From: an archaeon
Lineage (GTDB): Archaea > Nanobdellota > Nanobdellia > Woesearchaeales > JBDRAZ01
Assembly (NCBI GenBank): GCA_043823195.1
Contig: JBDRAZ010000038.1
Location: 3,592-67,591, forward strand
Direction: 5' to 3'
Length of the DNA: 64,000 bases
The position numbers and the translations under genes are program-made. Shown piece by piece: positions 1,148 through 61,980 of this stretch. Position 1 is the stretch's first letter, and every line of letters begins with the position of its first letter. The notes under the pieces were generated by a model. It was given only the letters and a program-made list of their open reading frames with translations, did not search any database and was not told where the DNA came from.

Positions 1148-2002
1148 AATAATAACATTACCTGCGTATTGGGTAAGGCCGTGGTCAGGCATGTCTGTGT
1201 ATATCTTGAATGGTGCGTCTTTAAGGACATTTCTGATCGGATCTTCGCCCAATCCATTCTTTCTCTTGAGCCAATCGACAGATGAGCCTGAGAGGAAGAG
1301 ATGGTAGACGCCGCCGTTGAGCTTTGGTGCATTAGCTTCTGCAGCTTTCTTCAGTTGTTTAAGTTCATATTCGTGGGCTCCGCTTTGGTAATCATCAGAT
1401 TTAACATGCTGGTTCAATCTCAACAGATTCTCAAGTCCCAGATCCCATGAGTAGTTCATCTGTGAAACATCGCCTACAATCCGGAGGATTCCCGGCCTGA
1501 AGCCCTCGGGCAATTCAAAGATCTCATTGACAGCATTATAGACAGCCAGCCGCTCCATGTATCCAGGTGACATATCCCAATACACCAGAGGGCTATCTCC
1601 CTCAAACGGATCAGGCTCCCAGGCAGCTGCGTCGAAGTCAGCTCGGGCGAGCCTGGCAAGGTTAGCGTCTGCGTAAGAGGGGCTCTTGCCGTCTGTAACT
1701 TCCATAGTGCCGTCAGGATGCCAGACATCGAACTCTGTAACCTGGCCTTCGAGACTTTGGTACCTGCTGCCTTTCTGGACCCAAGGGGTTATCCTGAGAT
1801 CGAGGTGATCCTGCAGCTCACTAATAGAGAAGTGCAACAAGGTGTCAGCTGATGCGCCTTCCAGGCGGACTGCAGCAGAGCCGTCCCTGTCGCGGTCGGC
1901 GTTTATAGCCTTCATGAGATTATCGTAAGTCGTGCCTGCCCAGCCCGATACAGTGGAAGCTAAGGTGATTGCAAGCGCTCCGATAAGTGATAATCGTCTC
2001 AT
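1142..2002 (-). CDS. secreted hypothetical protein (signal peptide)
   Basis: N-terminus MRRLSLIGALAITLASTVSGWAG is signal-peptide-like. No recognisable catalytic motif. Host-like GC content. Confidence 0.45.
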   Translation of the reverse strand: MRRLSLIGALAITLASTVSGWAGTTYDNLMKAINADRDRDGSAAVRLEGASADTLLHFSISELQDHLDLRITPWVQKGSRYQSLEGQVTEFDVWHPDGTMEVTDGKSPSYADANLARLARADFDAAAWEPDPFEGDSPLVYWDMSPGYMERLAVYNAVNEIFELPEGFRPGILRIVGDVSQMNYSWDLGLENLLRLNQHVKSDDYQSGAHEYELKQLKKAAEANAPKLNGGVYHLFLSGSSVDWLKRKNGLGEDPIRNVLKDAPFKIYTDMPDHGLTQYAGNVIIL

Positions 2003-2049
2003 CTTGATTAGTAATTGATATCTGAATATATAAATGTTTCCATTTTTAA

Positions 2050-3690
2050 CTACATTTGAGTAGTATCGAATTGCGGCAGCTTAGCCAATATCCCGGAAAC
2101 AATCTTCCTCAAACGCTTTTTTCTTTCACTGTGATATGCTTCATAGCCCGGTATGTCTGCCTCTCGATTAAACTGCCTTGGCGATTCGGCAGCAGGTCCC
2201 CTGCCATAGGGAAGGCCCTCCGGATGCCTGTAGAACCTTACTTTTGACGGCCTGTGTGCTGGGTTTTCAGCAAAATGGTTCTCCCAGTATTGCTGGCTGG
2301 TTATTGCCGGGTCTGCGCGCTCGTATAGCTGATGGGTGTTTGCATAGAAGTCCCTGAGCCCTGCGCGACGCTCAAGCATCTCCCTTACTAATGCTTCACG
2401 CTCCTCAGGCTCTCCATGCCATTCGTCCTCAGGAAAGTTGCGATTGATGTTCTGCATAGCAAAGTGCACCCTGAACAGGTATTCATGGGCTGTTCTTTCA
2501 TCCTGAAAGCCCAATAGGTATGCAAGATGATTAAGGCCGCCCTCAATAACGGAATAGGCATCTGAAATCTCTGAGACGACAGGGCCATGGAATAGATCGT
2601 GGTCGCGGGATGCTGACGCGCCGCAGTAGATGCCTGCCAGTTCCGGAGCAATGCCTATAACAGTGTCAAGCCAGTTATCTGAATCGGTTGCGAGCTGACC
2701 CCTAAGTTCCGGCCTGATGATCGGATTCATTGCCTCATCCAGGGCGTATTGCGAACCTGTTCGCAAATCGACTGATAAGCCTGCCGGTATGCAGACAACC
2801 CCCATGTCCAGAGGTATGCCGCCGGGCGCAAATACGCAGGCATCGTTGTGCTTCTTGTCAGGCGTCTCTTCAAACGCAGTGTGGTGGAAGTTATGGGCTA
2901 ATGCTTCGGCGGGAAATAGTATGTAGATATCGTAGCCGTGCTCGCCTCCATACCATCCGGAGTTAATTAGGTTTGTTGTGAAGTGGACGCTCTCCCTCTC
3001 AGCAGCCACGCAGTCATCCTCTGTCAGGGTAAACACAAAGTCATCCAGGTGCTGCGAGAAGGATTTTTTAGGACATCTTCTGGCAGCCTGCACAGCAAGT
3101 TCCTGTATGTATGATGGGTCACCAGGATCCAGCAGCAGATTGATGCTGCTCTGTAGCCTGCCTGCGGCAAGAAGGTCCTTGAACGAATTAATGAACTCTC
3201 CCTGACCCCAGGAGTGCAGGCCCAGAATGCCAAGGTCCATGACATTTTCACGGATACCGTATCTTGTGACATGGCATGCGTATCCGCCGCGCAATCGTCT
3301 GGAGAGGGTGTGGTAGTCATCATAGGACATCTGCGAGAGGGATTCAACTGAAAGAAGCCCCATTTCATAATCATCAAGAGGTGTTGAGGAGAGGAGGCGG
3401 TCGACTGCACCTTTGTGCCCAAGACGTATGGCCTGTGCCCTCTCACCAATGAGGCGGTTGCGTCGCGGCCCATATTCTGCATGAGCTGACCTGTATCTCT
3501 TTCCGAGCCGCGCGATCCAGGGTGTTGAACGCAGCTGCTCAACAAGCGGCTCAAGAGATGTTCCCCGGTAGAAAGAAGGTTCGATCTCTTTATGACCTGC
3601 GCGGTTTGCCTCCAGGGCACGTAACCTGCCGGCCGTGTCTCTGCGAATATCATTACCGAATTTACGTTCCCATTCACGCCGTAGGCTCAC
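2050..3690 (-). CDS. hypothetical 546-aa protein, possibly alpha-glucan metabolism by context
   Basis: Long ORF with host-like codon usage, between the phosphorylase and a GT4 gene. No confident family assignment from sequence; GH57 N-terminal motifs were not found. Confidence 0.4.
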   Translation of the reverse strand: MSLRREWERKFGNDIRRDTAGRLRALEANRAGHKEIEPSFYRGTSLEPLVEQLRSTPWIARLGKRYRSAHAEYGPRRNRLIGERAQAIRLGHKGAVDRLLSSTPLDDYEMGLLSVESLSQMSYDDYHTLSRRLRGGYACHVTRYGIRENVMDLGILGLHSWGQGEFINSFKDLLAAGRLQSSINLLLDPGDPSYIQELAVQAARRCPKKSFSQHLDDFVFTLTEDDCVAAERESVHFTTNLINSGWYGGEHGYDIYILFPAEALAHNFHHTAFEETPDKKHNDACVFAPGGIPLDMGVVCIPAGLSVDLRTGSQYALDEAMNPIIRPELRGQLATDSDNWLDTVIGIAPELAGIYCGASASRDHDLFHGPVVSEISDAYSVIEGGLNHLAYLLGFQDERTAHEYLFRVHFAMQNINRNFPEDEWHGEPEEREALVREMLERRAGLRDFYANTHQLYERADPAITSQQYWENHFAENPAHRPSKVRFYRHPEGLPYGRGPAAESPRQFNREADIPGYEAYHSERKKRLRKIVSGILAKLPQFDTTQM

Positions 3691-3753
3691 GTTACTATCT
3701 ATGGGTAGTCAATATATATAAATGTTTGTACTAAACTGCAGGAAAAAGCAGGA

Positions 3754-4902
3754 TTAAAGACTGTCCGCAATCCTTCCAGTAACCCTGTCCCAGCTGAACT
3801 TGTCGCGGACGATGCTGCTGACCTTCATTGACTTTGGTTTTCCGGCCAGACGTATTATTTCATCCACAAATTGCTTGTCTGTATCGCAGAATGAGATTGC
3901 CCCCAGCGGCCCAAACACCTCCCTGTTGGCAGTCAGGTTTGTAGAGACAACTGAGAGTCCCATGGCCAGGTATTCAGCAATCTTGATATTGAGGACATTG
4001 TCCTGGTTCACGTTGCGTTCATAAGGAAGCATGCCTGTGTTTGCAAGCGAGAGGTAGAGGGGAAGCTTGTCGAGGTCGACAAAGCCGAGGACCTTGACGT
4101 TCTTGGACTTGAGCTTTTTCAGCTCGTCAAAGCGCTTGCCTGCGCCCATGAGGATGAAGCTGATGCCGTCAGTCTTTTTCAGGACGCCGCGTATAATGGC
4201 GATCATGCGCCCGCACATGTGGTAGTCTACGCTGCCATGGTAGACGACAGTTTTTTCCTTAAGACCCAGTTTCTTTTTTAGGGTACGAATGTCTGATTCC
4301 TTAACCTTGCCGGGATCAAACAGCTCTGCGTCTGCACCGTAGTAGCTCACAACTATTTTGCCCTCGGGAACACCATAGCTAACAAGAGTAGACTTCATTG
4401 TGGGTGAGATGGTAAAAATCTGATCGAAGAGTCTTGGAATGAATCTCTCGTACTTCATCATGATATCCACGACAAAGTTGGGATAGTGCTCATTGTCATA
4501 CAGGAACCCTGAGAGGAAATCGGTCATGGCGAGGCAGTATTTTGCATGATAGAATAGCCTGTAGAAGACTATTGGGGCGAGAAGGTTGTTCTGCACATAG
4601 ATAACGTCGTATTTTTTCCTGAAGATGAGCTGCAGGAACCTGAAGAAAAAAAGGAACGTGTATGCCATGTACCTGGGGCCGCGGAAGGTTGCGGTCTTGT
4701 GGACGTAGAAAGGTGCAAAGGCCTCAACGCAAATGCGCTCATTCTTTTCAACAATTTCCTTATCGCTGTACATGGGGCAGGACACTGTCACGTCGTGTCC
4801 GCGCTCAACAAGCTTTCTTACGGTCTTGTAGTTGCCCATGGAGCCGCCTGTCGAGGTCGGCCAGATGGGCTCGTTTGTGCAGAAAAGGATTTTCTTTGTC
4901 AT
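3754..4902 (-). CDS. glycosyltransferase family 4 (GT-B fold, group 1)
   Basis: N-terminus MTKKILFCTNEPIWPTSTGGSMGNY is typical of GT4. The C-terminal half has a GT1/GT4 nucleotide-sugar binding region. Confidence 0.7.
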   Translation of the reverse strand: MTKKILFCTNEPIWPTSTGGSMGNYKTVRKLVERGHDVTVSCPMYSDKEIVEKNERICVEAFAPFYVHKTATFRGPRYMAYTFLFFFRFLQLIFRKKYDVIYVQNNLLAPIVFYRLFYHAKYCLAMTDFLSGFLYDNEHYPNFVVDIMMKYERFIPRLFDQIFTISPTMKSTLVSYGVPEGKIVVSYYGADAELFDPGKVKESDIRTLKKKLGLKEKTVVYHGSVDYHMCGRMIAIIRGVLKKTDGISFILMGAGKRFDELKKLKSKNVKVLGFVDLDKLPLYLSLANTGMLPYERNVNQDNVLNIKIAEYLAMGLSVVSTNLTANREVFGPLGAISFCDTDKQFVDEIIRLAGKPKSMKVSSIVRDKFSWDRVTGRIADSL

Positions 4903-5001
4903 TCAGTTTTGCCAGAAAACCGATATTCTAAAGTGATTATATTAATGTTTTGAAAGAATATTGGAAAAAGCTTAAAGGTTAAGGCAATTTATTGATGCCA
5001 G

Positions 5002-5817
5002 ATGCAACGATTGATATACTACCTCCTTGCCGGAATATTAAGCCTGTCTTCGGCAAAAGCGGGTGCCGAAAGCCCGCTTGACCGGATTGTCCAGAAGGCT
5101 TATGTACATGAGAAAGGTGATGAATGGCGTGATCACCTGTGGTCATCTGCATTCTTAACTCTTAGTGACTCATTTCTTCTTCAGCATGCAGACTATGAAG
5201 GTGAGCCTGAAAACCTGGCAGCCCAGACAAGATTTGCAGAAACTGTAGCCTATCAGGGAATTTATACTCCCCTCGTTGAAGGCAAAATCACCCCAGTATA
5301 CGCAGCCTTTGATATTGCAGGAACCCAGATAGCGCATAAGCTGTTTCCCAAGCTTGGCTTCGTTGAACCGTTTGTGGACAGGATAGCAGACATCACAGAG
5401 AGAAAGAATCTTAGGTTCCTTGCGTTAGTAACCGCCGGAACCATGGCAGCAGGTTATACGTTACCCAGACAGAGGGACCTGATAGAGATTGACGCTGGAG
5501 AACAGACTAACCCCAATAATGCCTGGCTTCATGTCGGCTTTTTTGCATATTATACATTCAGAACGTCGATGCTTCTTGAGCATGCCGGTTATGACAAGCA
5601 CCCTCCGGAATCGCTTGCGTGGAGAGTTGCTTTTGGCCTCGGCCTTGCGAAAGAACTGATCTATGACGGAACTGTGGGAAAGGGGCCGAGTGTAATAGAT
5701 GCCGGTGCTGACGCGCTGGGTGTCTGGATAGGGCATAAGGCTGCCAAAGTATACCGGGAGGGCAGAAATCTTACGGTCAGTCTAGTCCCTAATCTGAGGA
5801 TTACATATACGTTTTGA
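5002..5817 (+). CDS. secreted hypothetical protein
   Basis: MQRLIYYLLAGILSLSSAKAGAE is a signal peptide. The TGA stop codon abuts the left att repeat of the integrated element. Confidence 0.45.
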   Translation: MQRLIYYLLAGILSLSSAKAGAESPLDRIVQKAYVHEKGDEWRDHLWSSAFLTLSDSFLLQHADYEGEPENLAAQTRFAETVAYQGIYTPLVEGKITPVYAAFDIAGTQIAHKLFPKLGFVEPFVDRIADITERKNLRFLALVTAGTMAAGYTLPRQRDLIEIDAGEQTNPNNAWLHVGFFAYYTFRTSMLLEHAGYDKHPPESLAWRVAFGLGLAKELIYDGTVGKGPSVIDAGADALGVWIGHKAAKVYREGRNLTVSLVPNLRITYTF

Positions 5818-5831
5818 CGCCAGGCCCAGGA
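5817..5831 (+). repeat. attL-like 15-bp direct repeat (copy of tRNA-Ser 3' end)
   Basis: acgccaggcccagga is identical to 17734-17748. Confidence 0.7.
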
Positions 5832-5840
5832 ATGTGACCT

Positions 5841-6743
5841 TCAAGGGGTCTGGCTGGATGGCAGTAAACTCAATTTCTTACTACTTGCCTCCGGTTTTGT
5901 TTTCAATAATATAAGTATTTCCTTTTCACTGAATCCACGATGAACTAAGTTTGTACGAATATTCTCCAAAGATTCCCAAAGCATAGTATCAGTTAGTTTT
6001 CTGCTTCGAGCATTTCGCTCCAATCTACCTTTCAATTCATTGGCTGCGTATTGATTTAAAAGTGATATTTGTTTGTAAGTAGTTTCATCAAGCTTCTTAT
6101 CAATGGTCATTAAATATGAATATGTATTAGCAAAGGAAGATAGATTTATAGAATTGAGAATAAGGTCTATTCTAACATTTTCGTCGAGACTAGGGATAGT
6201 ATCTAAATGTTCATAAAGTCCTCTATAGATTCTTTTAACACTTATAGAATCTCTGAGATATTCTGCGAACAACTCCGAGGTGTAAATCAGAGCTTTGATT
6301 TCATTCCAGCGTAACATTTCATTTGGTGTTATATAACCTTCTTGAACCGATTCGTTACAAAATATGCTTCGAACAAATCTTGCCAATAAATGATTGAGTT
6401 GTGCTTGGCTGTCCTTATAATATCCACTGCCAAAGAATGAGCGGTCACCACGATCCCAAAAGATAAGATGAATTTTTTTGTATGTTGATACATTTCGAGG
6501 TATCCTATATTCGTAGGGGCTCCAAGGTCGATTTTTTTTATCAATGTAATCTGGAATTTTTCGCCTGTCAACCAACTTCTTTTTTATTAGAGGTTTCCTG
6601 GCTTTAGGGACGTTGTTTTGTTGAGACTTGAAAATGCCCTGTTTTAGAATCTGCTTTGTCCGAAGCCACCCGCCAGAGGTCAAATCATCATTAAGAGCCA
6701 ATGACTTAAGAAATGCAAATTCAAGCTCAGTTAGATGTTCCAC
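5841..6743 (-). CDS. hypothetical protein (element cargo, unknown function)
   Basis: 300-aa AT-rich ORF at the element edge with no recognisable motifs. Confidence 0.4.
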   Translation of the reverse strand: MEHLTELEFAFLKSLALNDDLTSGGWLRTKQILKQGIFKSQQNNVPKARKPLIKKKLVDRRKIPDYIDKKNRPWSPYEYRIPRNVSTYKKIHLIFWDRGDRSFFGSGYYKDSQAQLNHLLARFVRSIFCNESVQEGYITPNEMLRWNEIKALIYTSELFAEYLRDSISVKRIYRGLYEHLDTIPSLDENVRIDLILNSINLSSFANTYSYLMTIDKKLDETTYKQISLLNQYAANELKGRLERNARSRKLTDTMLWESLENIRTNLVHRGFSEKEILILLKTKPEASSKKLSLLPSSQTP

Positions 6744-6866
6744 AGTTTATATCATAATATCAACTAGTATATAAACTCATCCATAAATAATACAGCCAGA
6801 TTGGTTATGGCATTCCACAATTAATATGGGTCGGCATCTCGCATATTAAGGGGTATTTATAGGAGA

Positions 6867-7070
6867 TTGGTATCTGAGATGGTTAAGATGAACCTCAAGC
6901 TACGAAATCCAAGAAAAATAATCTCATATAACTACAGTTTCCTCATCACAATTCCACCCACCTGGCTGCGACATCATAAGATAGGTAAGGGGGATCATAT
7001 AGATTTTGAGATTGATAAGGAGCATAACTTGGTTTTGAAGCCTTATGGAGAGCATGATGAAACTAACTAA
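6867..7070 (+). CDS. AbrB/SpoVT (swapped-hairpin) type DNA-binding protein, putative regulator or antitoxin
   Basis: The 67-aa sequence LKLRNPRKIISYNYSFLITIPPTWLRHHKIGKGDHIDFEIDKEHNLVLKP matches the AbrB/MazE-like pattern (ISxxxxITIPxxxRxxxxIxxGDxV). Confidence 0.4.
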   Translation: MVSEMVKMNLKLRNPRKIISYNYSFLITIPPTWLRHHKIGKGDHIDFEIDKEHNLVLKPYGEHDETN

Positions 7071-7200
7071 GCTACCAGAACATATGGAGGAGCAACTACC
7101 TGAAGAATTAAAGGCAGTACTTGCTTTTCATAATCAAGCCAAAGGCTGAGGCGAAGGCCTCAGCCCCTATCACAGAACAGACACAAGTAATGTCTAGTTC

Positions 7201-9006
7201 TTGACTTATAAAAAACTTGTTAAAATGAATAATGAAGAAACCAAAGCAATCTTAGACACAAATAAGGAACTCTGTGCAAAAATGGACAAATACTATCAAA
7301 AGCTAGAGTCAGCATTTATGGGCGAATTGCAGAGAGTGGGGGTAACGGAGTTTGTTATTCAGAAAATTGCTGCAGATCTGCAGAAACTAGGCAGGCATCA
7401 CGATAAGCTGCTTGGATATGTAACTGCTTGGTATCCTATGTTGCTTGAGAATGTTCAAAGAATAGGTTCAAACACTAAACTACCTACTACTTCTTACTAC
7501 CCTACTACATCTAACTACAGACTACAAAGCTGGGGGATATACGATCCTTCCCGTCAGTTATATGTTGAGCAACTGACTGCTAACTTATTCATCTATAATT
7601 ACAGAGGAATTAAGGGAATAACCGAGAAGAAAATATCTCAGGATAAGCAGAGCAAACGGATAATTGAGTTTCTAAACATTGAGGATCAGGAACTGAAGTT
7701 TACAAAACCTGTCCAGGTGGCCAGCTACAATCGCCCAAGCTCTGAATTAGCATACCAATACATTGATGGAAAGTACAAACCAAGAGGTCTTGATTACATA
7801 ATCCAGGATATTGAAAAGATTCTGCTCGCTTTGTACGATTTCAAATTCCCAACGGATATTTCCATAATAAAGCTAGCCATTGGACAGAGTTACCTCATAC
7901 CTTTGTTTGAGGGAGTATTTTACTTGGGAATAGATGCAACAAAAGGCGGAGGCAAAACAACTTTGCTTGAGTTAGCCTGTTTTCTTATGCGGCATGGCAT
8001 AATGGGAGGAGACATCAGTGCCGCAGCATTACCTCGGATGGTCGATCAATTACAATTAAGCATAGCGGTTGATGAGATAGACCAGAAAATTGGAGAGAAG
8101 GCTCAGGAAGATATTACAGCCGTATTAAGGAAAGGGCAGCGCCGAGGTAATCCATACACACGTTGTGAAGGTCGTTCTCATATCCCAACATCTTATGATG
8201 TATTTGGCAGTCATCTCTACAGCTTCCGTTCTGATGTTGAGGACGCTTTCGGAAGTCGCACAATCCCAATACATGCCGCGAAATCTAGGGATAGTAGGTT
8301 ATCGGTTCTCAATCTTTACAAAGCGCAAGTTTTGAAACCCTTAGCGGATGAATTGTTTTTATGGGCAATTGATAACCTCCTTAAGATTCCTGTGGTGAGC
8401 TGTAGTAACGTAGTAGGGTGTAGCGGGACTTTAAGGGATAAGGATAGCGAACTTATCAGAGATCAGCTATTTAAAAAATTCACTGAGCATTTGGGAGACG
8501 ATCATGTTAAGTTGGTGAAAAAACTTTCAGGAAGAAATGCGGAACTTGCTTACATCTGTTGTGATGTGGCCAACAGACTTAATCTGGATGTGTTAAGCGA
8601 TCTAAATAATGTCATGACTTTAAAGGAAACAGATGAGATTGCTAACCAAGACTTTTATTTGGAAAGCCTTGAGCGGTTCCTTGGTGAAAAACACATGACC
8701 CTATCTAGTATCGACAAGAAAGAAAAATTCACCAAGAAAGATGGCAAATATGCAGCGTGTCTATTTTACCCAAAAAATCTACTTTATCAGGAATTTGTTC
8801 AGTCCCTTACTCAAAATAATGTTAGGACAATAGGCCATAAAAAGTTCAACAGCCTTTTGCGAGATTTGGGTTTTATAGAGAGGGACACTCTGCGGAATGT
8901 CAGAGTAGATGACATGCCTCGTCAATGCATCATATTTTCTGACAAGATATTGAACCGGATAGGTGTAGAGAAAGAAGAACAGATACTATCGGAGAATATA
9001 CAATGA
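7201..9006 (+). CDS. P-loop NTPase (~600 aa), putative replication/partition/packaging ATPase of the element
   Basis: Deviant Walker A GIDATKGGGKTTLLE and Walker-B-like SIAVDEID. No other recognisable domains. An alternative start is MNNEE at 7225. Confidence 0.5.
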   Translation: MTYKKLVKMNNEETKAILDTNKELCAKMDKYYQKLESAFMGELQRVGVTEFVIQKIAADLQKLGRHHDKLLGYVTAWYPMLLENVQRIGSNTKLPTTSYYPTTSNYRLQSWGIYDPSRQLYVEQLTANLFIYNYRGIKGITEKKISQDKQSKRIIEFLNIEDQELKFTKPVQVASYNRPSSELAYQYIDGKYKPRGLDYIIQDIEKILLALYDFKFPTDISIIKLAIGQSYLIPLFEGVFYLGIDATKGGGKTTLLELACFLMRHGIMGGDISAAALPRMVDQLQLSIAVDEIDQKIGEKAQEDITAVLRKGQRRGNPYTRCEGRSHIPTSYDVFGSHLYSFRSDVEDAFGSRTIPIHAAKSRDSRLSVLNLYKAQVLKPLADELFLWAIDNLLKIPVVSCSNVVGCSGTLRDKDSELIRDQLFKKFTEHLGDDHVKLVKKLSGRNAELAYICCDVANRLNLDVLSDLNNVMTLKETDEIANQDFYLESLERFLGEKHMTLSSIDKKEKFTKKDGKYAACLFYPKNLLYQEFVQSLTQNNVRTIGHKKFNSLLRDLGFIERDTLRNVRVDDMPRQCIIFSDKILNRIGVEKEEQILSENIQ

Positions 9007-9327
9007 GACCTGGCTTGCATAATAGAGAGCGGATTATGCTCTGCTTGAGCCACAGGCTGCAGGAATTGAAAGATAAAATCCGTACATATACAAAAGAGCG
9101 TGATGAGGTAGAGTCTAAATTGAGGCACAATCAAAGAGAAACACAAAATGACAAAAGATCGAGCGGGACCGCATAGCAAGTTTTTTGATGTGATCCCAGA
9201 AAAACAAAAGGAAACGGATGAAGCAGAAGATGACTGACAGAGGTATTCTGATTATCTATGTGCCATTATTGCTATCAGTCGGAGTCTTTTACTCGTGGAA
9301 AATCAACAAAATTTATGAGGTCGGAGG

Positions 9328-9651
9328 ATGACCGTCAGCGCTTATTTGCTCTCAATCGCCTTACTTTTTTTCATGGTGGTAGGGCTAACGGTTGCAGTTC
9401 AAAAGCTCATAGCAATGGTGCGACGGCTCCAGACACCCACTATATCGATCCATTATGATAAAGCAAGGCTCGACAAACTCGCCGCGACTATTGATAAGCT
9501 TGACCTGGAAAGTAAATTCATGTTGTTGCATCATCAATTTGGTGACGCAACAGCATTATTAAACCTCGAGTCTGGCCGGATACGTTTGGCGGGTATAGGA
9601 AAAGTACCGTCTCTTGAGGAGCCGGATGAACCGATGGATTATTCCGGTTGA
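9328..9651 (+). CDS. small membrane protein, hypothetical
   Basis: N-terminal TM segment LLSIALLFFMVVGLTVAV. It is followed by a GC-rich inverted repeat, gggggtattcttccccc. Confidence 0.3.
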   Translation: MTVSAYLLSIALLFFMVVGLTVAVQKLIAMVRRLQTPTISIHYDKARLDKLAATIDKLDLESKFMLLHHQFGDATALLNLESGRIRLAGIGKVPSLEEPDEPMDYSG

Positions 9652-10091
9652 TCTTGGGCAAGATACAAGTTAAGGGCGGGGGTATTCTTCCCCCTCGCAT
9701 AATAACAAGTAACATTTGATTAGCTTAGTGTGTGAACGCCGCCATTTTCCTATAGTACGTTAATTTTCCCCCTGCACTGCCTCCAAAACGGCATTTCTAT
9801 GTAATCCGAACCATTTTCGGTCATAATCCAATAAGAGTGTTAAATTTTGGTCAGATTGAAAGGTTTTCGAACAACCTGAAAGAATTATCAGAATCATTGA
9901 GCAAAACATAATAAGATCAGACAACACCTTGTTTATTGGGCGGCATAACCGGTACGACGAGAGAAGTCCGCGGGGTTTGGGCTCAGACCCGATTTATTTC
10001 TTAATTAGAATGATCACTGGACACTGGACATGTTGGTGTAGGGTATATATATGAACAGTCTACACTTCTTTGTTAATTCATAGAATATTAA

Positions 10092-10667
10092 GTGGAGGAA
10101 CCAAAAATGACTGGTCGAGACGATGTGTATGAAATATTAGCTGCACAAGCTGAAATCGAACCTTGCCCTGCGTGTGGCCATACAATGAAAGATACGTATG
10201 GACATTGCGAGTGTTGTGGACAGATAGGTGATATTGAGCCTAGTTCTGGTCCAGACAGAAATATGGCAAGAGACGACAGAGTGTGCGAGATTATTTCAGT
10301 AATGCACGCTAGATATAAATTAGAAGATAAAGGATTTAAAGTAGTTAGTATAAAAAGGAAGCCCGCCAGAGGGCCGGATGAGTTAAATAAAGATTACATT
10401 GACAAATTGCTTGAAGATTTTTCAGGTAGCCAAGAGGAAGTGCTTAGGTTATTAAATGAAAATCTTAAAGGTATTCCTGACCTTCTCTGCCTAAAAGATG
10501 GTGTACTATCTTTTGTTGAAGTCAAATCAAATAAATCACAACTAACAGGTGATCAGAAGAAAGTTATGAAATTATTAAAAGATAAAGGATACAATGCACG
10601 TGTCATGAAGTTTGGTGTCACATTCAATGTTGAAGACATAGATAAAAATTGTAACCCAAGCGTGTAG
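10092..10667 (+). CDS. VRR-NUC family PD-(D/E)xK nuclease with N-terminal zinc ribbon
   Basis: N-terminal CPACGH...CECCG zinc ribbon. The C-terminal GIPDLLCLKDGVLSFVEVKSNKSQLTGDQKKV matches the VRR-NUC pattern G-PDL...E-K...Q. Confidence 0.6.
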   Translation: MEEPKMTGRDDVYEILAAQAEIEPCPACGHTMKDTYGHCECCGQIGDIEPSSGPDRNMARDDRVCEIISVMHARYKLEDKGFKVVSIKRKPARGPDELNKDYIDKLLEDFSGSQEEVLRLLNENLKGIPDLLCLKDGVLSFVEVKSNKSQLTGDQKKVMKLLKDKGYNARVMKFGVTFNVEDIDKNCNPSV

Positions 10668-10769
10668 AATTCAAATATGGGTACTGCTTCTGGTACTTGC
10701 TATAGATATGCACTAGTATTTACTTACGGAATCTGCAAATGTATATAACTATTAGCATATTATTAGACC

Positions 10770-11627
10770 ATGATGATTAATATATCCACAATTAACGAAT
10801 ACACATTCTGCCCATATCAGGCATATAATTCTCTGAACAAAGAGAACATAACTAAACTGTTACCAAGCGATTCCTTTGTTGCCAGGAATGATTCTTTTCT
10901 AGAAGATCTTAAAAACAATTTCTACGATTACATTAAAACTGGAAAACTACTGAGTCCCGATAAGAGAACCGTAAAAAGTATGATGCAATCAAATACTGTT
11001 AGTCATATCTCAGAGTTAGGTGTAATTAGTGAGAAGGAGGGGCTACAAGGGTATTGTGATGAAGCTCAAGTTTCATCAAATGGAATTACACTGATAGAAT
11101 ATAAAACTACCAAGCAAGAAAGATCCCATGACTTCAATAATGATCCCGCCATTAATCAGTTAATTGCATATGCGCATTCTTTTCAGGAATATTTTGATGC
11201 ACAGGCAACAATAACTCTAAGAGTGATTAGGATATTTTTACGTGATAAGGTGAGTTTTATAAATAGATGCCTTCTGAATCCAATTGGTCATGATGGATCA
11301 TCAAGTTTAGGAGAGTCCGAAACAAGCGATAATATCAATTGGGCCGCATCTATGGAAATCATATATGAAAAAGCTTACAAGTTAGAGTTGTTGAACCGTG
11401 TTAAGCCAATCATACAACGAATCAAAAAAGCTGATTTTAGTCATCAGGATAATCGTTCAAGATGCAAGAAATGTAAATACAAGTATAATTGTTGCGATAG
11501 TCTGGCGTATGTCCCAGGAGTTCTGAGAAGCCAATTACAGGTAGATTGGTCGAAAAAATGCGGTAAATGCGATAATAATAAACGCTGTGCAAGAGTGATT
11601 AGAAAACAGATGGGTTTAATCGGCTAG
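10770..11627 (+). CDS. Cas4/RecB-like (DUF83-type) PD-(D/E)xK nuclease with Fe-S cluster cysteines, standalone
   Basis: N-terminal YTFCPYQAY (Cas4-like first Cys). Central ITLIEYKTTK (ExK motif). C-terminal CKKCKYKYNCC = CX2CX5C, plus an extra KCGKCDNNKRC. No cas genes or CRISPR array nearby. Confidence 0.55.
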   Translation: MMINISTINEYTFCPYQAYNSLNKENITKLLPSDSFVARNDSFLEDLKNNFYDYIKTGKLLSPDKRTVKSMMQSNTVSHISELGVISEKEGLQGYCDEAQVSSNGITLIEYKTTKQERSHDFNNDPAINQLIAYAHSFQEYFDAQATITLRVIRIFLRDKVSFINRCLLNPIGHDGSSSLGESETSDNINWAASMEIIYEKAYKLELLNRVKPIIQRIKKADFSHQDNRSRCKKCKYKYNCCDSLAYVPGVLRSQLQVDWSKKCGKCDNNKRCARVIRKQMGLIG

Positions 11628-11690
11628 GTGGGGGTATAGATTCAAATGTGTTACATTTTTCTTTCAGATGTATTACATTTGAGTTTTTTG

Positions 11691-11969
11691 TCACTCAACA
11701 TCACCATATCCGCTATGTCTGTTCCTTCTTATATTGGCAATAACGGTCTTAGAAATTAGGCCTATTGAACTGTCATGTATGACTTTTGAGCCTATCGACG
11801 CTAATTGTTTCAATGCTGTGCTATCTTTGGGTTGTTGAAGGAACTTTTTATTCTTTTGAAGCTCTGCATATTCCTGTTTATTCATCGCTACAGTGAATAC
11901 TATCCGCTTTCCTTTCTTCTTTTCTTCATCTAGTGTATAGTTAACAAATGGTATTCTTTTAATTGTCAT
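11691..11969 (-). CDS. hypothetical small protein
   Basis: 92-aa AT-rich ORF with no motifs. Confidence 0.3.
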   Translation of the reverse strand: MTIKRIPFVNYTLDEEKKKGKRIVFTVAMNKQEYAELQKNKKFLQQPKDSTALKQLASIGSKVIHDSSIGLISKTVIANIRRNRHSGYGDVE

Positions 11970-12575
11970 CGGAGGCTTTGTTATTTTGTTCTTTCTCTAC
12001 CAAACTCTCTTGTTCCTTTCGCCGTCTGTTATCATCCGGATTTTCTTGTAAGTTCCCATGAATGTTCTGGATCAGGAAAAAATGTTATTGCTAAATCATA
12101 TGCATCACTATATGTAGATTCTACCTGAACTAACCAACCACCTGGAACTAACAGTCTATATGTGCCGCTACTTACTGTTTCCCACTTTCTTGGATATGGT
12201 TTCATATTATCACCCTTTCTTTAAAATATATTTTTAGTATATAAAAATTTGGTTCGGGCCGGAATCAAAGAAATTCCTTGAAAATATGTTGATCTCGTTT
12301 GACGGATGTTGTTGGCAACTGAGATTTTGTACATAGACATGAAATACTAATTTACGATACCAGATAGAATTAATATATTACTGATCTGGCCAATAGACCC
12401 GTCAATTGCAGAAATCTATAAATAGTTGCATCACCCCATAAAGCAACCAGGGGGTACATTCTATGGCAGTATGCCATAGTTGAGGAAGTAAGCTGAAGGA
12501 ATACGATGATCTGTGGAAACAAATAGATGAGAAAACAAGAAAATTTAGAAATGTCTAGTCACATTATATTTATAA

Positions 12576-13781
12576 ATGGAAGTAAACAATAAAACAGACA
12601 CATTTGAGTTGATATACTCTTTCTTCATGTTGGTGTTTGGAATATCTGTGATTCTTTGTTTTATTGTTGTAGTTGCGTATATGGTTATATTGTTTAACTT
12701 GATCTTTTTACTTTTTTGCTGGCCAATTTTGGCAGGAATATGGATGGGAATTTTTAAGAATTCAGAGAAGAGATACGAGATTGAATTAAACTCATCTGAT
12801 GCAAAAAAATTATGTATGATTATTAATAAAGTTACAACAAAAACAGGACTTCCGAAACCATACAAAATCATTTTATCGGAAGGCAGTGGGGTTGCAGTAA
12901 CCGGATTATTTAGAAGGAAGATAATAATAGGATTAGCAACTCTACAACTATTAAATGAGAATGATTTGCTGGCTATAATTGCACATGAGTATGGTCACTT
13001 TGCCAAAAAAGATACCATTTTGGGTTATTTTACTTATAGAATCCAGCTTTTTTTTGAATTGCAGCGTGATATTAATGAGCAAAATTTGGCTGTTTCGTTG
13101 TCAATAATTGTCTATCTTCCTACTTGGTTATTCTTCGCATTCCTATCAGACTATTATGCGTTAATTAGTTTATGGTTTAGTAGGAGAATTGAATATCGGG
13201 CAGATAAATTTGCAGCAGATTTTGTTGGAGCAAAAGAATTTGCTGATGCACTTGTCAAATATAGCGTTATAAGTGAGATATTTGAGAATGTAATCCCTAA
13301 ACATATTTTACATTTTCTACAACAGAATAAACAATTAGTGAATATTTATGATTACATGAATCCAATTTATACAGAAGAGAATGTTAAAAAATCTTTCAAG
13401 GAAGTTTTATCAAGCGAAAGTAGTTGGTGGTCAACACATCCAAGCATTAGTGAACGATTGGAAGCTCTTAATGCTAAATCTGTTGATGTAAATATCAGCA
13501 CAAATCAGGAAGACTTCATTGATGATCAGAAAAAATATGAAGAAAAAGCAAGTGAAGTATTGAGTCAAAAAATGGCTTTTTGGGCACACCTTGCATCTGC
13601 TCAACAATACGTAGAGTCTGAAGATATTGAGCCTGAAGATGAAGAAGATAACCAAGTAAATCAACAAAGTGCATATTTTTGTACAAAGTGCGGGAATCAA
13701 GTAAGCGAAGATGATATTCATTGCAAAAAATGTAAGCAACTGCTTGCTGTTGATGGAGCCTGTGTAAGGAGGGAATTTTAA
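12576..13781 (+). CDS. membrane Zn-metalloprotease, M48/M56-like (HExxH), with C-terminal zinc ribbon
   Basis: N-terminal TM helices. AIIAHEYGHFAKKD is the HExxH motif typical of M48 (Ste24/HtpX-like). The C-terminus has CTKCGNQVSEDDIHCKKCKQ. Confidence 0.55.
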   Translation: MEVNNKTDTFELIYSFFMLVFGISVILCFIVVVAYMVILFNLIFLLFCWPILAGIWMGIFKNSEKRYEIELNSSDAKKLCMIINKVTTKTGLPKPYKIILSEGSGVAVTGLFRRKIIIGLATLQLLNENDLLAIIAHEYGHFAKKDTILGYFTYRIQLFFELQRDINEQNLAVSLSIIVYLPTWLFFAFLSDYYALISLWFSRRIEYRADKFAADFVGAKEFADALVKYSVISEIFENVIPKHILHFLQQNKQLVNIYDYMNPIYTEENVKKSFKEVLSSESSWWSTHPSISERLEALNAKSVDVNISTNQEDFIDDQKKYEEKASEVLSQKMAFWAHLASAQQYVESEDIEPEDEEDNQVNQQSAYFCTKCGNQVSEDDIHCKKCKQLLAVDGACVRREF

Positions 13782-14350
13782 TGAAAATTTCTTTTAAAGT
13801 CACAAGCTATTATGCGAAGAATAAAAAAATATCCAAACTTCATGGAACCTTATTTATGATCGCAGGATTTATTATTTTAGTATTTATCTCCTACGGGCTA
13901 TATCAATTAAATACAAATTTTGGTTCAATATCTGAAGATAGGATCTCAGGCGATCATTCATCTGATTCTGGATACTATGTTGATGTAGATTGTTCAAATA
14001 TAAGTACTACAACGGGTAGAATGAATCTGGCTTCCTCATTTTTCATCGGGGAAGAGTCTGAATATGAATCTGCAAAGAGCAAATATTATTCAACCTCAAA
14101 TATTGATTTGAAATTAGAATCCTATGAACAATGGGAAGAATCTTACCGCTCATTAATCTCTAAGTTTAATGGTATGATATTTGCATATAATGAAGACTCG
14201 TTATATTTTGATTATTGTTATAATTATTCTGCATGGGAGGATATTGAAACAAAAAGGGCATTTCTTGATAGTGAAGAGATTATTATTGATACAGAATATG
14301 AAAAATTAAAACCCGAAGCTGAAGCAGAGGGATATATTTTTTATGAATGA
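13781..14350 (+). CDS. membrane-anchored hypothetical protein
   Basis: Start overlaps the stop of the M48 gene. It has one N-terminal TM helix. Confidence 0.35.
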   Translation: MKISFKVTSYYAKNKKISKLHGTLFMIAGFIILVFISYGLYQLNTNFGSISEDRISGDHSSDSGYYVDVDCSNISTTTGRMNLASSFFIGEESEYESAKSKYYSTSNIDLKLESYEQWEESYRSLISKFNGMIFAYNEDSLYFDYCYNYSAWEDIETKRAFLDSEEIIIDTEYEKLKPEAEAEGYIFYE

Positions 14351-14408
14351 TTTAAACGGAATTCAATAAATAGCAATACTTTTAAATTCCAATAAACTTA
14401 GTTTTAAT

Positions 14409-14648
14409 ATGTCGTTCATAAACAAAATATTTCAAGTTTGGTATTATTTTTTTGGATTCGTTGTAGGTATAATCTTTTTCTATCTTGGAAAATCAAGAAT
14501 TTCGATGGGTATAAGTTCAATAAGAACATCTGACCCATACACATCTCATTTTATGAATGTTGGATTATTGTATGTTCAGACTAGTTTGTTAATCTTGATT
14601 GTACTTACTATTGGTATTACCTACTCTTTAACAAAATCCAAAAAATAA
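14409..14648 (+). CDS. small integral membrane protein
   Basis: 79 aa with two predicted hydrophobic helices. Confidence 0.3.
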   Translation: MSFINKIFQVWYYFFGFVVGIIFFYLGKSRISMGISSIRTSDPYTSHFMNVGLLYVQTSLLILIVLTIGITYSLTKSKK

Positions 14649-14973
14649 TCTTACGGGCTATGGCGGACTTTGATTTTCACCTTCGAAATGTTGCACTCTC
14701 GCTACGCTCGCTAGGTTAAATTGGGCTAAGTTAAACTCTGGACTCCCCCTTTCTTATACCTTATACCTCTCCCGTGCGGGGCACAAATAAACACCAGTTT
14801 CTTTATCCAGACTTAACCGCTCGATAAGATTAGGTCCTTTTCAAGAGGGTGTTTTTTATAGGTAGTAAAGGTGCCAGTAGTAGCACATTGTGTGCCGACA
14901 TAAAGATTTAAGCAAGGAATCGTGACACAAAAAAGTGTAATATTCTATGATTACTGAACTTTTAGCTTTATTA

Positions 14974-15321
14974 TTACTTTTTTAATTTAATAATCGATAT
15001 TTTTATTTCTGTAAATATATCGTAACACAAATTTCGGTTAGAAAATATACTGTATAAGGATTCAACAAGAAGAATCACAGAAATTATTTCCCAGTGATCC
15101 AATAGAAAACCTACGATTTCATTCCAATAATTGCCAAAGTGATTTAATCCGTCTGGATCTTGATCTACCATTAGTAATACTTCATATTCCCAAGAAGGTT
15201 GCTTCCACCATAGATAGATTATTACAATTGCTTGGACTATTCCACGTTCTCGATTTCTTTCCATCAAATTTAGACAGTCACATTTAGCTAATATATATAT
15301 CGATAGATGGATTTTATTCAA
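14974..15321 (-). CDS. hypothetical protein
   Basis: 115-aa ORF with no motifs. Confidence 0.3.
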   Translation of the reverse strand: MNKIHLSIYILAKCDCLNLMERNRERGIVQAIVIIYLWWKQPSWEYEVLLMVDQDPDGLNHFGNYWNEIVGFLLDHWEIISVILLVESLYSIFSNRNLCYDIFTEIKISIIKLKK

Positions 15322-15382
15322 GTCCTAGCCATAGATTTATATAATCCAAAGTATACAACCTAAATGCTTAAAGGATATTAAT

Positions 15383-16171
15383 ATGAATCGAAAAATATTT
15401 GCTCTATTTGTATTGTCCATTATGTTGATGACTGGGTGTGTTTCTCAAGAGTCTTTCAAGACTCTTCAAACTCAATACGATGAATTGAACACTGAAAAAT
15501 CTGAGCTTGAGGTATTGAACGAAAATTTAACTGCTGAAAAATCTGAGCTTCAAGCATCAAACAACGATTTGGCTGCTGAAAAATCTGAGCTTGAGGTATT
15601 GAACGAAAATTTAACTGCTGAAAAATCTGAGCTTGATACTCAATTAACCAAGAATTTTGTTTTTCTCAGGGAGTATTCTATTGCCACGAATAATATCCAC
15701 GTAGCTTCAAGTTATTTTGAATTGGGATCTACGAATCTTAATACAGGAAATTTTTATGTTCTCACAGAAGGGTATTATTATGAAGTTGCAATTTCTTTTT
15801 ATGAAGCTGGAAAGCGACCTGTTTTAGATGCTAAAGAATTACTAACCAAAGCTATAGTAAAGTTGGAAAATATTGAGGAGGATGCACCTAATTCATTTTT
15901 TAAGGAAGATGTTAAAAATAGAATTGAACAGGCCAGGCTATTATTGGCATCATGCGACAATTTGTATTCTTTGCTAGATTATGAGGGTCAGCATTTATAT
16001 GAAGTTAATTTTGGCACAGCGGCCAAGGCAACGGAGTACTTTAATAGATACAATAGTGTGGTTACAGATTATAATTCAAATCTGAAAACACTAAGTGATA
16101 TTCAAAACAAAATTGACTTGAATTGGGACCAGGATTGGTATCCGACATTTCAAGAAGAATCAGTCATTTAG
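15383..16171 (+). CDS. lipoprotein with tandem coiled-coil repeats
   Basis: Signal peptide plus lipobox-like LMTGC. Repeated L(T/A)AEKSEL(E/Q/D) heptad-like units are encoded by near-perfect nucleotide repeats. Confidence 0.5.
   Translation: MNRKIFALFVLSIMLMTGCVSQESFKTLQTQYDELNTEKSELEVLNENLTAEKSELQASNNDLAAEKSELEVLNENLTAEKSELDTQLTKNFVFLREYSIATNNIHVASSYFELGSTNLNTGNFYVLTEGYYYEVAISFYEAGKRPVLDAKELLTKAIVKLENIEEDAPNSFFKEDVKNRIEQARLLLASCDNLYSLLDYEGQHLYEVNFGTAAKATEYFNRYNSVVTDYNSNLKTLSDIQNKIDLNWDQDWYPTFQEESVI
15492..15635 (+). repeat. 59-bp perfect direct duplicate (two copies 27 bp apart) inside the lipoprotein gene
   Basis: ctgaaaaatctgagcttgaggtattgaacgaaaatttaactgctgaaaaatctgagctt occurs at 15492-15550 and 15577-15635. 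The unit gctgaaaaatctgagctt occurs four times. Confidence 0.7.
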
Positions 16172-16370
16172 TTTATTTCGTCATCAATTAATTGCCGTTT
16201 AATTCTTGTTCTGTAAATCGGCTCGTTACTGATTATTCCATCTCCAATAGTATCCCGGTCTTTTTCTGGGCTTTGTTTCCCCTCTTCCCTACATTCTTTT
16301 TTCCTTTCAGGCTAGCCCTGAGCGTACTGAGATGCTTCGTCAGTGCTAACTCTTGAATAGAGGGCGATAA

Positions 16371-17642
16371 TCAATTCTCTTCTCCAAGGAACATCTTCTT
16401 AAACTCTTCAAACTGCTGTCGTTTGACTGGATCAGCCATGATCTCTGCGTAGACCTTGAGTCGTTTGTCAGTCTCGTTCTTGACTATCTCCTGGTCTTGG
16501 ATGGCTGTTTCCATCTTGAGAGGTTTGTAGCATCTGAAGCAGTACCTCTCCCTGGGATTGTTTAGGGTTCCGCAGACACAGAGGACGGGTTTATCGGTCT
16601 GGTCTTCCTTGGTGCTGATACCGTTCAGTTTCATAATCACATCTTGAAGTTGCTTGGTGCAGAGATGGACATATACTCTCACTTGCTTAGAACCGATCCG
16701 CCACCCCATATATTTGCAGAGGATGGCTTCTGTTACGTGAGGTGCCAGTATTGTAGCTCTCGAGTGCCGGAACCAGTGCCAGTTGTGCCTTTTATCTACT
16801 CCTGCTGCTTTGAAACATCTGTCAATAAGCTTCTGCCCTCCCCTGTGTACTAATGGCTTATGTAACCGATAATTCGAATCAGAGAGCCAGAGGTAGGTAT
16901 TGTTGCTTTCCCTGTATGGATGGATCTCAAGATACCGGATTAAACGGGGGACTGACTTGGTAACATAGACTATCCGTTGTCCGGTCTTGCCATCTGGTAC
17001 ATGTATCTCAGCATAATTCTCTTTTATCCGTATGTCCCCCACCTTGAGATTCAGGAACTCCCCGGCCCTGCATCCGGTTTCATGTAGCAGCATAAGAAAG
17101 GCTTTCTCCTTGTGCGTCCGGGCGCCTTTCTCAACTGCAGAGTCGATGTCATCCTCTGTAATTATGGTGTTGGGATCTGCTTGTCTTTGCTTGCAGCTGC
17201 TGGAAACCTCTTTCTCCAGGAAGCGATACAGCTTTCTTGCCTCGATTCGTTGATCCTCAAGCTTATTGAATAGTCTTTCATCTTCATCTTTATACCAGGA
17301 ATAAAACTGTTTCAGAACTCTCCTATAGTCTGCTCTGGTTGCATCGGACTTTTCCCCTAACCGGTTAATGAAGGATACTAGAGTCAGACAATCCTTTTTA
17401 TTTAGTCGATCAAGGTCCTTATCCAAGTTCAGAGCGCACTTCAGCCATCTGCAGATGTTCCGCAACTGGGCAGATAATTTTGCAACCCTGAGCTCCCCTG
17501 AGCCCGTAGAAAACACATAGTTATGGAACTCAGTTATCAACTCCTTGTTTCTTAGGCTGATCTTCTCAGCCTTCAATAACTTCAGCTCTTTCCCATAGGC
17601 CTTATGCCTATCAGGATATATCTCAAGTCTGCTTTCCTTCAT
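16371..17642 (-). CDS. int: tyrosine recombinase / integrase of the integrated element
   Basis: Catalytic-domain residues are present: R in CRAGEFLNLK, HxxR in HWFRHSRAT, and a Tyr-containing RVYVHL segment. There is an N-terminal SAM-like domain and a C-terminal CVCG...CFRC zinc ribbon. The gene is immediately adjacent to the tRNA-Ser att site. Confidence 0.8.
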   Translation of the reverse strand: MKESRLEIYPDRHKAYGKELKLLKAEKISLRNKELITEFHNYVFSTGSGELRVAKLSAQLRNICRWLKCALNLDKDLDRLNKKDCLTLVSFINRLGEKSDATRADYRRVLKQFYSWYKDEDERLFNKLEDQRIEARKLYRFLEKEVSSSCKQRQADPNTIITEDDIDSAVEKGARTHKEKAFLMLLHETGCRAGEFLNLKVGDIRIKENYAEIHVPDGKTGQRIVYVTKSVPRLIRYLEIHPYRESNNTYLWLSDSNYRLHKPLVHRGGQKLIDRCFKAAGVDKRHNWHWFRHSRATILAPHVTEAILCKYMGWRIGSKQVRVYVHLCTKQLQDVIMKLNGISTKEDQTDKPVLCVCGTLNNPRERYCFRCYKPLKMETAIQDQEIVKNETDKRLKVYAEIMADPVKRQQFEEFKKMFLGEEN

Positions 17643-17733
17643 TTTTTGTTTCGTAAGAATTAGAGGTTATTAAAGCCGTTAATACAAGGAACATCATGCC
17701 ATATTAGATATGGCAGTGCACCTTGATATTCCC

Positions 17734-17748
17734 ACGCCAGGCCCAGGA
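17734..17748 (+). repeat. attR-like 15-bp direct repeat within tRNA-Ser 3' end
   Basis: acgccaggcccagga covers the discriminator, the acceptor 3' strand and part of the T-stem of the minus-strand tRNA-Ser. Confidence 0.7.
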
Positions 17749-17832
17749 TTTGAACCTGGATGTCCCGGAGGACACTCGCTTTCTTTAGTATATTCGAGGC
17801 GAGCGCGTTAAGCCGGATTCCGCCAACCTGGC
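17735..17832 (-). tRNA. tRNA-Ser (anticodon CGA) with 12-nt intron at canonical 37/38 position
   Basis: Manual fold of the reverse complement. Acceptor GCCAGGU/GCCUGGC. 3-bp D-stem with long D-loop (type II). Anticodon stem CUCGC/GCGAG, loop CUCGAA with inserted UAUACUAAAGAA. Long variable arm GUCC-UCCG-GGAC. T-arm CCAGGUUCAAAUCCUGG. No encoded CCA. Confidence 0.7.
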
Positions 17833-17862
17833 ACAGCATGAACTGGTGAATGGTCGTATAAA

Positions 17863-48257: not shown

Positions 48258-48405
48258 TTTGTTCCTCCAGAATGCACGGGCCGTTATCTGGCCTAAACTA
48301 AATAATAATAACAGAAGCAATCTTGTTTTGCATCGCCTGATTCATGTCTGGGTAAGGTTGAGAGGATGTTTATAAATCTTTTGCTGATGGGCCGGATTGT
48401 GCCTG

Positions 48406-49473: not shown

Positions 49474-49491
49474 CCTAGATGCAGAATCTAT

Positions 49492-56459: not shown

Positions 56460-56466
56460 TGGCAGA

Positions 56467-59716: not shown

Positions 59717-59736
59717 ATGATGCTCTTGGATCCGGC

Positions 59737-60816: not shown

Positions 60817-60836
60817 CCGTTTCACTCTTTCTTCCA

Positions 60837-61928: not shown

Positions 61929-61980
61929 CATTATGACCACCGGAGAACAAAGAACATAATTTAAATGTTGCTGTGATTCA

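Follow-up and report, generated by a model that had tools for sequence, protein, structure and literature searches.

Two adjacent PD-(D/E)xK nucleases, one VRR-NUC and one Cas4-like, as candidate recombination and resolution enzymes of a tRNA-integrated archaeal mobile element

Rudiviruses encode a Holliday junction resolvase of the Hjc type. Their Cas4-like protein (gp19 of SIRV2) is a nuclease, and its conservation extends across the whole rudivirus family (PMC3158340). Cas4 is an Fe-S cluster protein with 5'-3' exonuclease activity (PMC3466216); mobile elements, including archaeal viruses, have recruited it many times, and small-genome archaea with no CRISPR are enriched in solo-Cas4 genes (Hudaiberdiev et al., 2017, PMC5704561). 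Stand-alone VRR-Nuc proteins cleave four-way junctions as dimers, as is known for three representatives (Pennell et al., 2014, PMC4103454). Here we describe adjacent genes for one nuclease of each kind, VRR-NUC (10092–10667, plus strand) and Cas4-like (10770–11627, plus strand), in a 64,000-nucleotide (nt) stretch of woesearchaeal DNA (GenBank assembly GCA_043823195.1, contig JBDRAZ010000038.1, positions 3,592 to 67,591; the window, numbered from its first letter). Both genes sit on a ~11.9-kb tRNA-integrated mobile element (5817–17757). We read them as accessory nucleases that serve recombination and resolution in a mosaic element, either plasmid-like or a cryptic provirus, that occupies the 3' end of a tRNA-Ser gene in an uncultured, possibly DPANN-like archaeon; we give this reading a probability of about 0.6. 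It starts from the domain identities of the proteins, the conservation of their motifs, the boundaries of the element, the Rep nature of a nearby nucleoside triphosphatase (NTPase; 7201–9006, plus strand), and the finding that these three genes are not a conserved trio, all of which were read directly.

An earlier note on this DNA, made from the letters alone, had placed the nuclease genes on a mobile element, and this is confirmed. A 24-nt direct repeat, exact in its first 15 nt, is present at 5817–5840 (attL) and 17734–17757 (attR), and attR forms the 3' end of a host tRNA-Ser(CGA) gene (17734–17833, minus strand). A tyrosine integrase of 423 amino acids (aa; 16371–17642, minus strand) adjoins the tRNA gene, and the G+C content falls from ~50% in the flanks to 32–43% over ~5900–16400, so that attL marks the left edge of the element together with the drop in composition. 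The span of ~5817–17757 is based on these three features, that is, the drop in G+C content, the direct repeat at the tRNA 3' end, and the adjoining integrase. The tRNA gene contains a 12-nt intron; it was recovered by intron-aware ARAGORN and by a permissive Rfam search (37.2 bits; gathering threshold, 29) and was not detected by default ARAGORN or by Rfam at gathering thresholds. The flanks of the element encode archaeal housekeeping proteins (e.g., aEF-1alpha, aEF-2, and L15e). The locus thereby provides a clean, bounded integrative element in a poorly known archaeal lineage, with its att sites mapped in an intron-bearing tRNA gene.

The two adjacent PD-(D/E)xK nucleases described in the earlier note are both present as open reading frames (ORFs), and both products score above the gathering threshold of a Pfam nuclease family. 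The Cas4-like product ('PD-(D/E)XK nuclease family protein' in the NCBI annotation) matches PDDEXK_1 (PF12705) with 29.9 bits (gathering score, 22; E = 7e-7) over residues 91–241 and the PADLOC model for Cas4, which has no curated cut-off, over nearly its full length (5e-10). A word-indexed homologue search with the protein returned only the protein itself. An exhaustive HMMER scan of 1.84 billion representatives identified 11 other proteins at E ≤ 1e-3, that is, a family of 12 representatives; all of the relatives have a precomputed PF12705 match, and the nearest are ~30% identical to the window protein. A search of viral contigs with the family alignment, which contains 11 sequences (the window protein and ten of its 11 relatives), found nothing. 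Across these 11 sequences, C14, D97, (E/D)110-Y-K112, Q130, Y134, C232, C235, and C241 are invariant or nearly so. The protein therefore contains the RecB-type motifs D (D97), (D/E)xK (E110-x-K112), and QxxxY (Q130xxxY134) as well as the four-cysteine pattern of Cas4, that is, an N-terminal C14 and a C-terminal C232-x2-C235-x5-C241, just as the earlier note had described; the four cysteines are the predicted ligands of an Fe-S cluster.

Like solo-Cas4 and other mobile-element Cas4 proteins, the window protein combines a RecB-type core with one plus three cysteines in the CX2CX5C arrangement and is encoded by a stand-alone gene on an archaeal mobile element; in a search with its family profile, MGME1 (3e-3) and two solved Cas4 proteins, 4r5q (7e-3) and 4ic1 (0.06), are weak matches. 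Unlike Cas4, it scores far below the cut-off of the curated cas4 model TIGR00372 (23 bits; cut-off, 65), has no PF01930 among its Pfam matches, and belongs to a very small family; unlike compact Cas4, it has a ~60-residue insertion (residues ~150–215). A ~40-residue C-terminal tail contains a second copy of CX2CX5C (C264-x2-C267-x5-C273) that is found in no other aligned member of the family. The tail had been described as an additional zinc ribbon; the second motif is present, but 'zinc ribbon' is a guess and is unproven because the tail has only three cysteines. The protein belongs to a rare and very divergent lineage, and its rarity, its divergence, and the duplicated cysteine motif are somewhat unusual; as such, it is a very divergent addition to the known recruitments of Cas4 by mobile elements.

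The VRR-NUC product ('VRR-NUC domain-containing protein' in the NCBI annotation) matches VRR_NUC (PF08774) with 32 bits (gathering score, 23.8; E = 1.4e-7); the match covers residues 119–173 of the protein and positions 51–113 of the 116 in the profile, that is, the model's C-terminal half. Two PHROG families match as well, 5702 ('Holliday junction resolvase', 2.8e-9) and 93 ('endonuclease', 4e-8), and the score of the protein with the Pfam model for archaeal Hjc (PF01870) is 12.1 bits, below the gathering score of 21.1. The segment G127-IPDLLCLKDGVLSFVEVKSNK aligns with the PD...ExK region of the Hjc-type proteins 2eo0, 1hh1, and 4tkd and of the VRR-Nuc protein 4qbn, with weak E-values (0.06–0.5 overall; 0.06–0.47 for Hjc); this alignment places the catalytic residues D130, E143, and K145. 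E66, in the predicted first helix and ahead of an Hjc-reminiscent 'KLEDKGFKVV', is a positional candidate for the fourth acidic residue. Loss of catalytic residues had been named in the earlier note as grounds for abandoning its proposal; none of the residues placed by alignment is lost in either nuclease, with D130, E143, and K145 present in the VRR-NUC protein and D97, E110, K112, Q130, and Y134 in the Cas4-like protein.

The true start of the VRR-NUC gene is likely the ATG at 10107, because GGAGG is located 8 nt upstream and because this start agrees with the 186-aa NCBI call. The cysteines of the N-terminus, reported earlier as a CxxC...CxxC ribbon, are present with a different spacing (C25-x2-C28-x10-C39-x-C41-C42, that is, CxxC...CxCC), and the support for a ribbon from hidden Markov models (HMMs) is weak (Zn_ribbon_LapB, E = 0.005); a metal knuckle is plausible. 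Like stand-alone VRR-Nuc (4qbn) and Hjc/Hje, the protein is a PD...ExK nuclease of small size, with a GxPDLL...FVEVK segment that can be aligned to both families, and its gene is located on a mobile element among replication genes. Unlike them, it has ~55 additional N-terminal residues that contain the CxxC...CxCC knuckle and a ~30-residue insertion (~95–125) ahead of the PD motif. In the word-indexed homologue search, the protein returned only itself.

The 601-aa NTPase encoded upstream of the nucleases had been described as 'deviant-Walker'; this is incorrect, because its Walker A motif, ATKGGGKT (residues 246–253), fits the canonical [AG]x4GK[ST]. Its Walker B motif is VDEID. A ParA-type 'deviant Walker' NTPase was rejected on motif spacing and fold. 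Orthology to rolling-circle or theta Rep proteins, which the earlier note had said would count against its proposal, was also rejected, as no such match appeared. The NTPase has no sequence match in Pfam, NCBIfam, PADLOC, or the PDB, and its family profile likewise matched no PDB sequence. An AlphaFold2 model from a 44-sequence alignment (predicted local distance difference test [pLDDT], 84.7; confidence is low in the helical first 105 residues) has a P-loop core with Walker A and B motifs and a replicative-helicase fold. Its Foldseek neighbors in the PDB are MCM subunits, SaPIbov1 Rep (8tch), PriRep1 (7pds), AsfvPrimPol (the primase-helicase of African swine fever virus), and Rep40 of adeno-associated virus; among viral models, its neighbors are phage primase-helicases (Toprim/twinkle, DUF927, DUF3987, COG3378, and 'Replication protein B'; best E = 5.6e-19). 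The template-modeling scores (TM-scores) of the fold matches are low (0.25–0.47), so superfamily 3 (SF3) and MCM-like AAA+ are both candidate helicase clades.

Several of the 55 homologues of the NTPase have an N-terminal Prim-Pol domain (PF09250; P0011, P0013, P0021, and an ORF in locus L010), and one of these also has a DnaG-type CHC2 zinc finger. The NTPase resembles primase-helicase Reps (D5-like/DUF927/DUF3987, 8tch, and 7pds) in its P-loop helicase core, in its C-terminal helical/winged-helix region, in the fusion of its homologues to Prim-Pol, and in that its slot is occupied by a D5-type helicase in a sister element (vide infra); it differs from them in the lack of a Pfam, NCBIfam, or PDB sequence match and of a primase domain, there being no Prim-Pol match in the window protein. 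From the modeled fold and the family, the NTPase is predicted to be the replicative helicase of the element, a member of a Prim-Pol–helicase family; the prediction gives annotators a candidate function, Rep helicase, for a protein family without a Pfam model. On archaeal contigs, including one of a Woesearchaeota metagenome-assembled genome, homologues occupy small islands that also encode an integrase. With tblastn, a Pseudomonas phage and small Acinetobacter plasmids give weak partial matches, all to hypothetical proteins; those of the plasmids (9–12 kb) are large. Three architectures occur in the Rep family (P0003–P0056, at least 55 members): the helicase alone, with Prim-Pol, or with both Prim-Pol and CHC2. 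Downstream of the NTPase gene, a 57-aa basic coiled-coil-like ORF (9003–9176) has a start codon that shares nucleotides with the stop codon of the NTPase gene (ATGA), an arrangement suggestive of translational coupling; it is followed by a 107-aa ORF (9328–9651) with an N-terminal membrane-like segment and by ~440 nt (9652–10091) that contain no ORF of at least 60 aa and begin with a G/C-rich hairpin.

The earlier note had proposed that the NTPase and the two nucleases form either a replication/recombination module or a novel nuclease-NTPase defence system. We collected NTPase loci (L001, L002, L010, L015, and L016, plus 14 in metagenomes); a broad alignment of the NTPase found one genome locus and none in metagenome or viral contigs, and the 14 in metagenomes came from a tighter alignment. 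Of the 14, L017, L019, L020, and L023 have long flanks, and L023 duplicates L002. Using phmmer with both nucleases, the HMM of the Cas4-like family, and a crude PD...ExK motif scan, we found neither nuclease at any of the nine other NTPase loci with usable flanks (L001, L002/L023, L010, L015, L016, L017, L019, and L020). The NTPase, VRR-NUC, and Cas4-like genes are not a conserved trio. The module proposal therefore holds in part, as the three proteins are of the expected kinds (a predicted replicative helicase, a junction-resolving nuclease, and an end-resecting nuclease), and fails as to a fixed trio (0/9 loci).

The same results bear on the defence proposal, in which the NTPase would sense or translocate on foreign DNA that the two nucleases degrade. 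Many defence systems join an NTPase with PD-(D/E)xK nucleases, and in the window three nucleic-acid enzymes are encoded within 4.5 kb of the same strand, in an island that was horizontally acquired. However, the NTPase is assigned to a Prim-Pol–helicase replication family and is found at nine other loci without either nuclease; a D5 helicase takes its place in the sister element; and in PADLOC-DB 2.0 the Cas4-like protein matches only the generic Cas4 and PD-(D/E)xK models, whereas neither the NTPase nor the VRR-NUC protein nor any further ORF of the island has a match, so that no defence system is identified. The 1.1-kb gap that follows the NTPase gene and separate promoter-like TATA boxes also speak against a single operon. 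Because the trio is not conserved, the Cas4-like gene has other partners elsewhere, PADLOC identifies no system, and the genes are loosely coupled, a defence system is unsupported; the absent co-occurrence largely refutes it, and we regard it as very improbable. The main value of this analysis is that a candidate 'novel defence system' is removed and that the NTPase family gains a candidate function.

The sister element, L009 (positions 1–8926 of a Logan contig from SRR20958178, without terminal overlap), shares with the window element the integrase (40% identity), an AbrB protein (37%), and the Cas4-like gene (29%). If the contig is read as a circle, its gene order is that of the window: integrase (minus), an ORF of ~270–300 aa (minus), AbrB (plus), a large helicase (plus), small ORFs, a DNA-junction enzyme (plus), and the Cas4-like gene (plus). 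In L009, the slot of the NTPase is occupied by a D5_N/DUF5906/Pox_D5 helicase, and the slot of the VRR-NUC gene, immediately preceding the Cas4-like gene, is occupied by a serine recombinase ('Resolvase', 1.7e-44). These differences suggest non-orthologous replacement both of the replicative helicase and of the enzyme that resolves joined DNA. A Zot-like ATPase gene of L016, one of the loci with a window-type NTPase, has a relative (3.5e-34) in the first ORF of L009 (2–550); this sharing speaks for a mosaic pool of elements. Such elements would then exchange modules, the window element having a VRR-NUC nuclease and a helicase of an unnamed family where L009 has a serine recombinase and a D5 helicase.

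A different question is whether the two nucleases belong together. Their genes are separated by a 103-nt spacer; read by eye, each has its own TATA-like box (tatatatat at 10044–10052 for VRR-NUC; tatataa at 10742–10748, 22–28 nt before the ATG at 10770, for the Cas4-like gene), so their co-transcription is not established. The pair is unique to the window, and an all-against-all comparison of the Cas4-like loci shows that no neighbor is conserved. Of 50,697 phage records searched by tblastn, none matched either nuclease. In L006, the Cas4-like gene is adjacent to genes for a family-B DNA polymerase (PolB) and a small winged-helix protein; in L005, to one for a Hel308-like helicase C-terminus (read from the translation); and in L004, it has a small PD-ExK endonuclease gene 11 nt upstream, a Metallophos protein gene downstream, and a Rad50-like ATPase gene near it. 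The small endonuclease in L004 (9438–9989, 183 aa) has an E...PD...ExK pattern (SPDFIIT...FIEVKTS) and a weak TnsA-like match (E = 0.002); BLASTP detected no similarity between it and the window VRR-NUC protein.

The adjacency may therefore be accidental, with the Cas4-like gene a captured host solo-Cas4 for a repair nuclease that does not benefit the element and the VRR-NUC gene an independent resolvase or addiction/toxin-type nuclease. The separate TATA-like boxes and the change of upstream partner from locus to locus agree with such independence, as does the reported occurrence of VRR-Nuc domains as toxins in type VI secretion system effectors (PMC9635880). No immunity-like gene was recognized beside the VRR-NUC gene, however, and the small endonuclease 11 nt upstream in L004 and the serine recombinase in the corresponding slot of L009 hint at a recurring arrangement. 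Because the pair is unique to the window locus, accidental adjacency stays a fair alternative to paired function, although we consider it unlikely. The upstream partners (VRR-NUC in the window; in L004 and L009, a TnsA/Hjc-like nuclease and a serine recombinase, respectively) would also suit a bolder proposal, that the Cas4-like proteins are a rare, undescribed Fe-S nuclease family of small-genome archaea and of the mobile elements in them, that the family is habitually paired with a DNA-junction enzyme in a minimal recombination/resolution or anti-defence module, and that the duplicated CX2CX5C tail of the window copy binds a second metal center; we regard this as doubtful.

As the earlier note had stated, the two nuclease genes are unaccompanied by cas genes or a CRISPR array: the 64-kb window contains no CRISPR-like array, no Cas family is present among the most-matched families listed for its 36 other large ORFs, and the Cas4-like gene thus lacks, within the window, the linkage to cas1/cas2 or CRISPR that is expected of CRISPR-associated Cas4. 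These absences also weigh against an anti-defence role, in which the Cas4-like protein, perhaps with the VRR-NUC protein, would disturb spacer acquisition or degrade intermediates of host defence. The location of its gene on a mobile element and its high divergence (vide supra) would suit such a role, but its relatives also adjoin replication and repair genes (PolB and Hel308-like), and nothing that we found points to anti-defence, which we consider improbable.

We return to the interpretation of the nucleases as accessory recombination/resolution enzymes, for which we infer the enzymatic activities, the substrates, and the cooperation of the two proteins. The 601-aa NTPase would serve as the replicative helicase/initiator of the element. 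The Cas4-like protein would be a metal-dependent Fe-S exonuclease of the RecB/AddB/Cas4 kind that resects ends to recombinogenic single strands, and the VRR-NUC/Hjc-like protein would be a dimeric, structure-specific endonuclease that acts on four-way junctions and branched intermediates, including multimers of the element. Together, the nucleases would serve a presumed episomal form in its recombination-linked replication, in its repair, and in the resolution of its multimers; they would be swappable cargo of the mosaic pool and not parts of a fixed three-gene system. The intact catalytic residues of both nucleases and the intact Fe-S cysteines of the Cas4-like protein, with conservation across the family in the case of the latter protein, support this interpretation, as does the location of other Cas4-like genes next to genes of DNA metabolism (PolB, the Hel308-like C-terminus, and PD-ExK plus Metallophos plus Rad50-like). 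Several observations weigh against it. The two nucleases are co-conserved nowhere else, and their cooperation is deduced from adjacency; family scans recognized no single-strand annealing protein, single-stranded DNA-binding protein, or recombinase among the proteins of the element; for the VRR-NUC protein, no relative was detected, so that its N-terminal half and E66 are read from a single sequence; and its AlphaFold2 model, predicted from that one sequence, is unusable (pLDDT, 38.6; predicted TM-score, 0.22).

The remaining genes of the element complete its order: a 300-aa ORF (minus), AbrB/MazE, the NTPase, small ORFs, VRR-NUC, Cas4-like, an M48 protease, membrane/coiled-coil proteins, and the integrase. 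The 300-aa ORF (5841–6743, minus strand) has no family match and is divergent from the AbrB-Rep operon; its counterpart by position in L009 is a 270-aa ORF. The AbrB/MazE (SpoVT-AbrB) DNA-binding protein (6867–7070, plus strand; 67 aa; PF04014, 5.6e-6) is a likely regulator. Downstream of the nucleases, a 401-aa membrane metalloprotease (12576–13781; Peptidase_M48, 4e-21) has a C-terminal double zinc-ribbon tail and is unusual cargo for a small integrative element, and a 262-aa coiled-coil protein (15383–16171; weak coiled-coil-type matches) is encoded by a gene in which a 42-nt unit (14 residues) is repeated 3.5 times in tandem (15492–15636). In the host DNA, a minus-strand run of consecutive ORFs (46701–62760) resembles a tandem array of radical SAM/SPASM paralogues that is unusual in its size and may be a peptide-maturase cluster; among the 36 large ORFs scanned in the window, 11 match Radical_SAM and 7 match SPASM, and the PADLOC viperin models match nine of them, presumably by generic radical-SAM similarity.

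As compared with described systems, the components of the element are of known kinds throughout (a mobile-element Cas4-like nuclease, a stand-alone VRR-NUC/Hjc-like nuclease, and a Rep assigned to a primase-helicase family), and we propose no new mechanism; the orphan status of the VRR-NUC protein is a somewhat unusual feature. The proposed pairing would resemble the exonuclease-plus-resolvase pairs of rudiviruses and lambdoid phages. The window nucleases have no tblastn similarity to phage or archaeal-virus records; further, rudiviruses have linear, hairpin-ended genomes and a different initiator, whereas the window element is tRNA-integrating, presumably circular, and equipped with a predicted AAA+/SF3-like helicase. 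Nevertheless, both are archaeal mobile elements that encode a Cas4/RecB-like nuclease together with a nuclease of the Holliday junction resolvase type, and the rudiviruses are the closest functional analogy for this locus.

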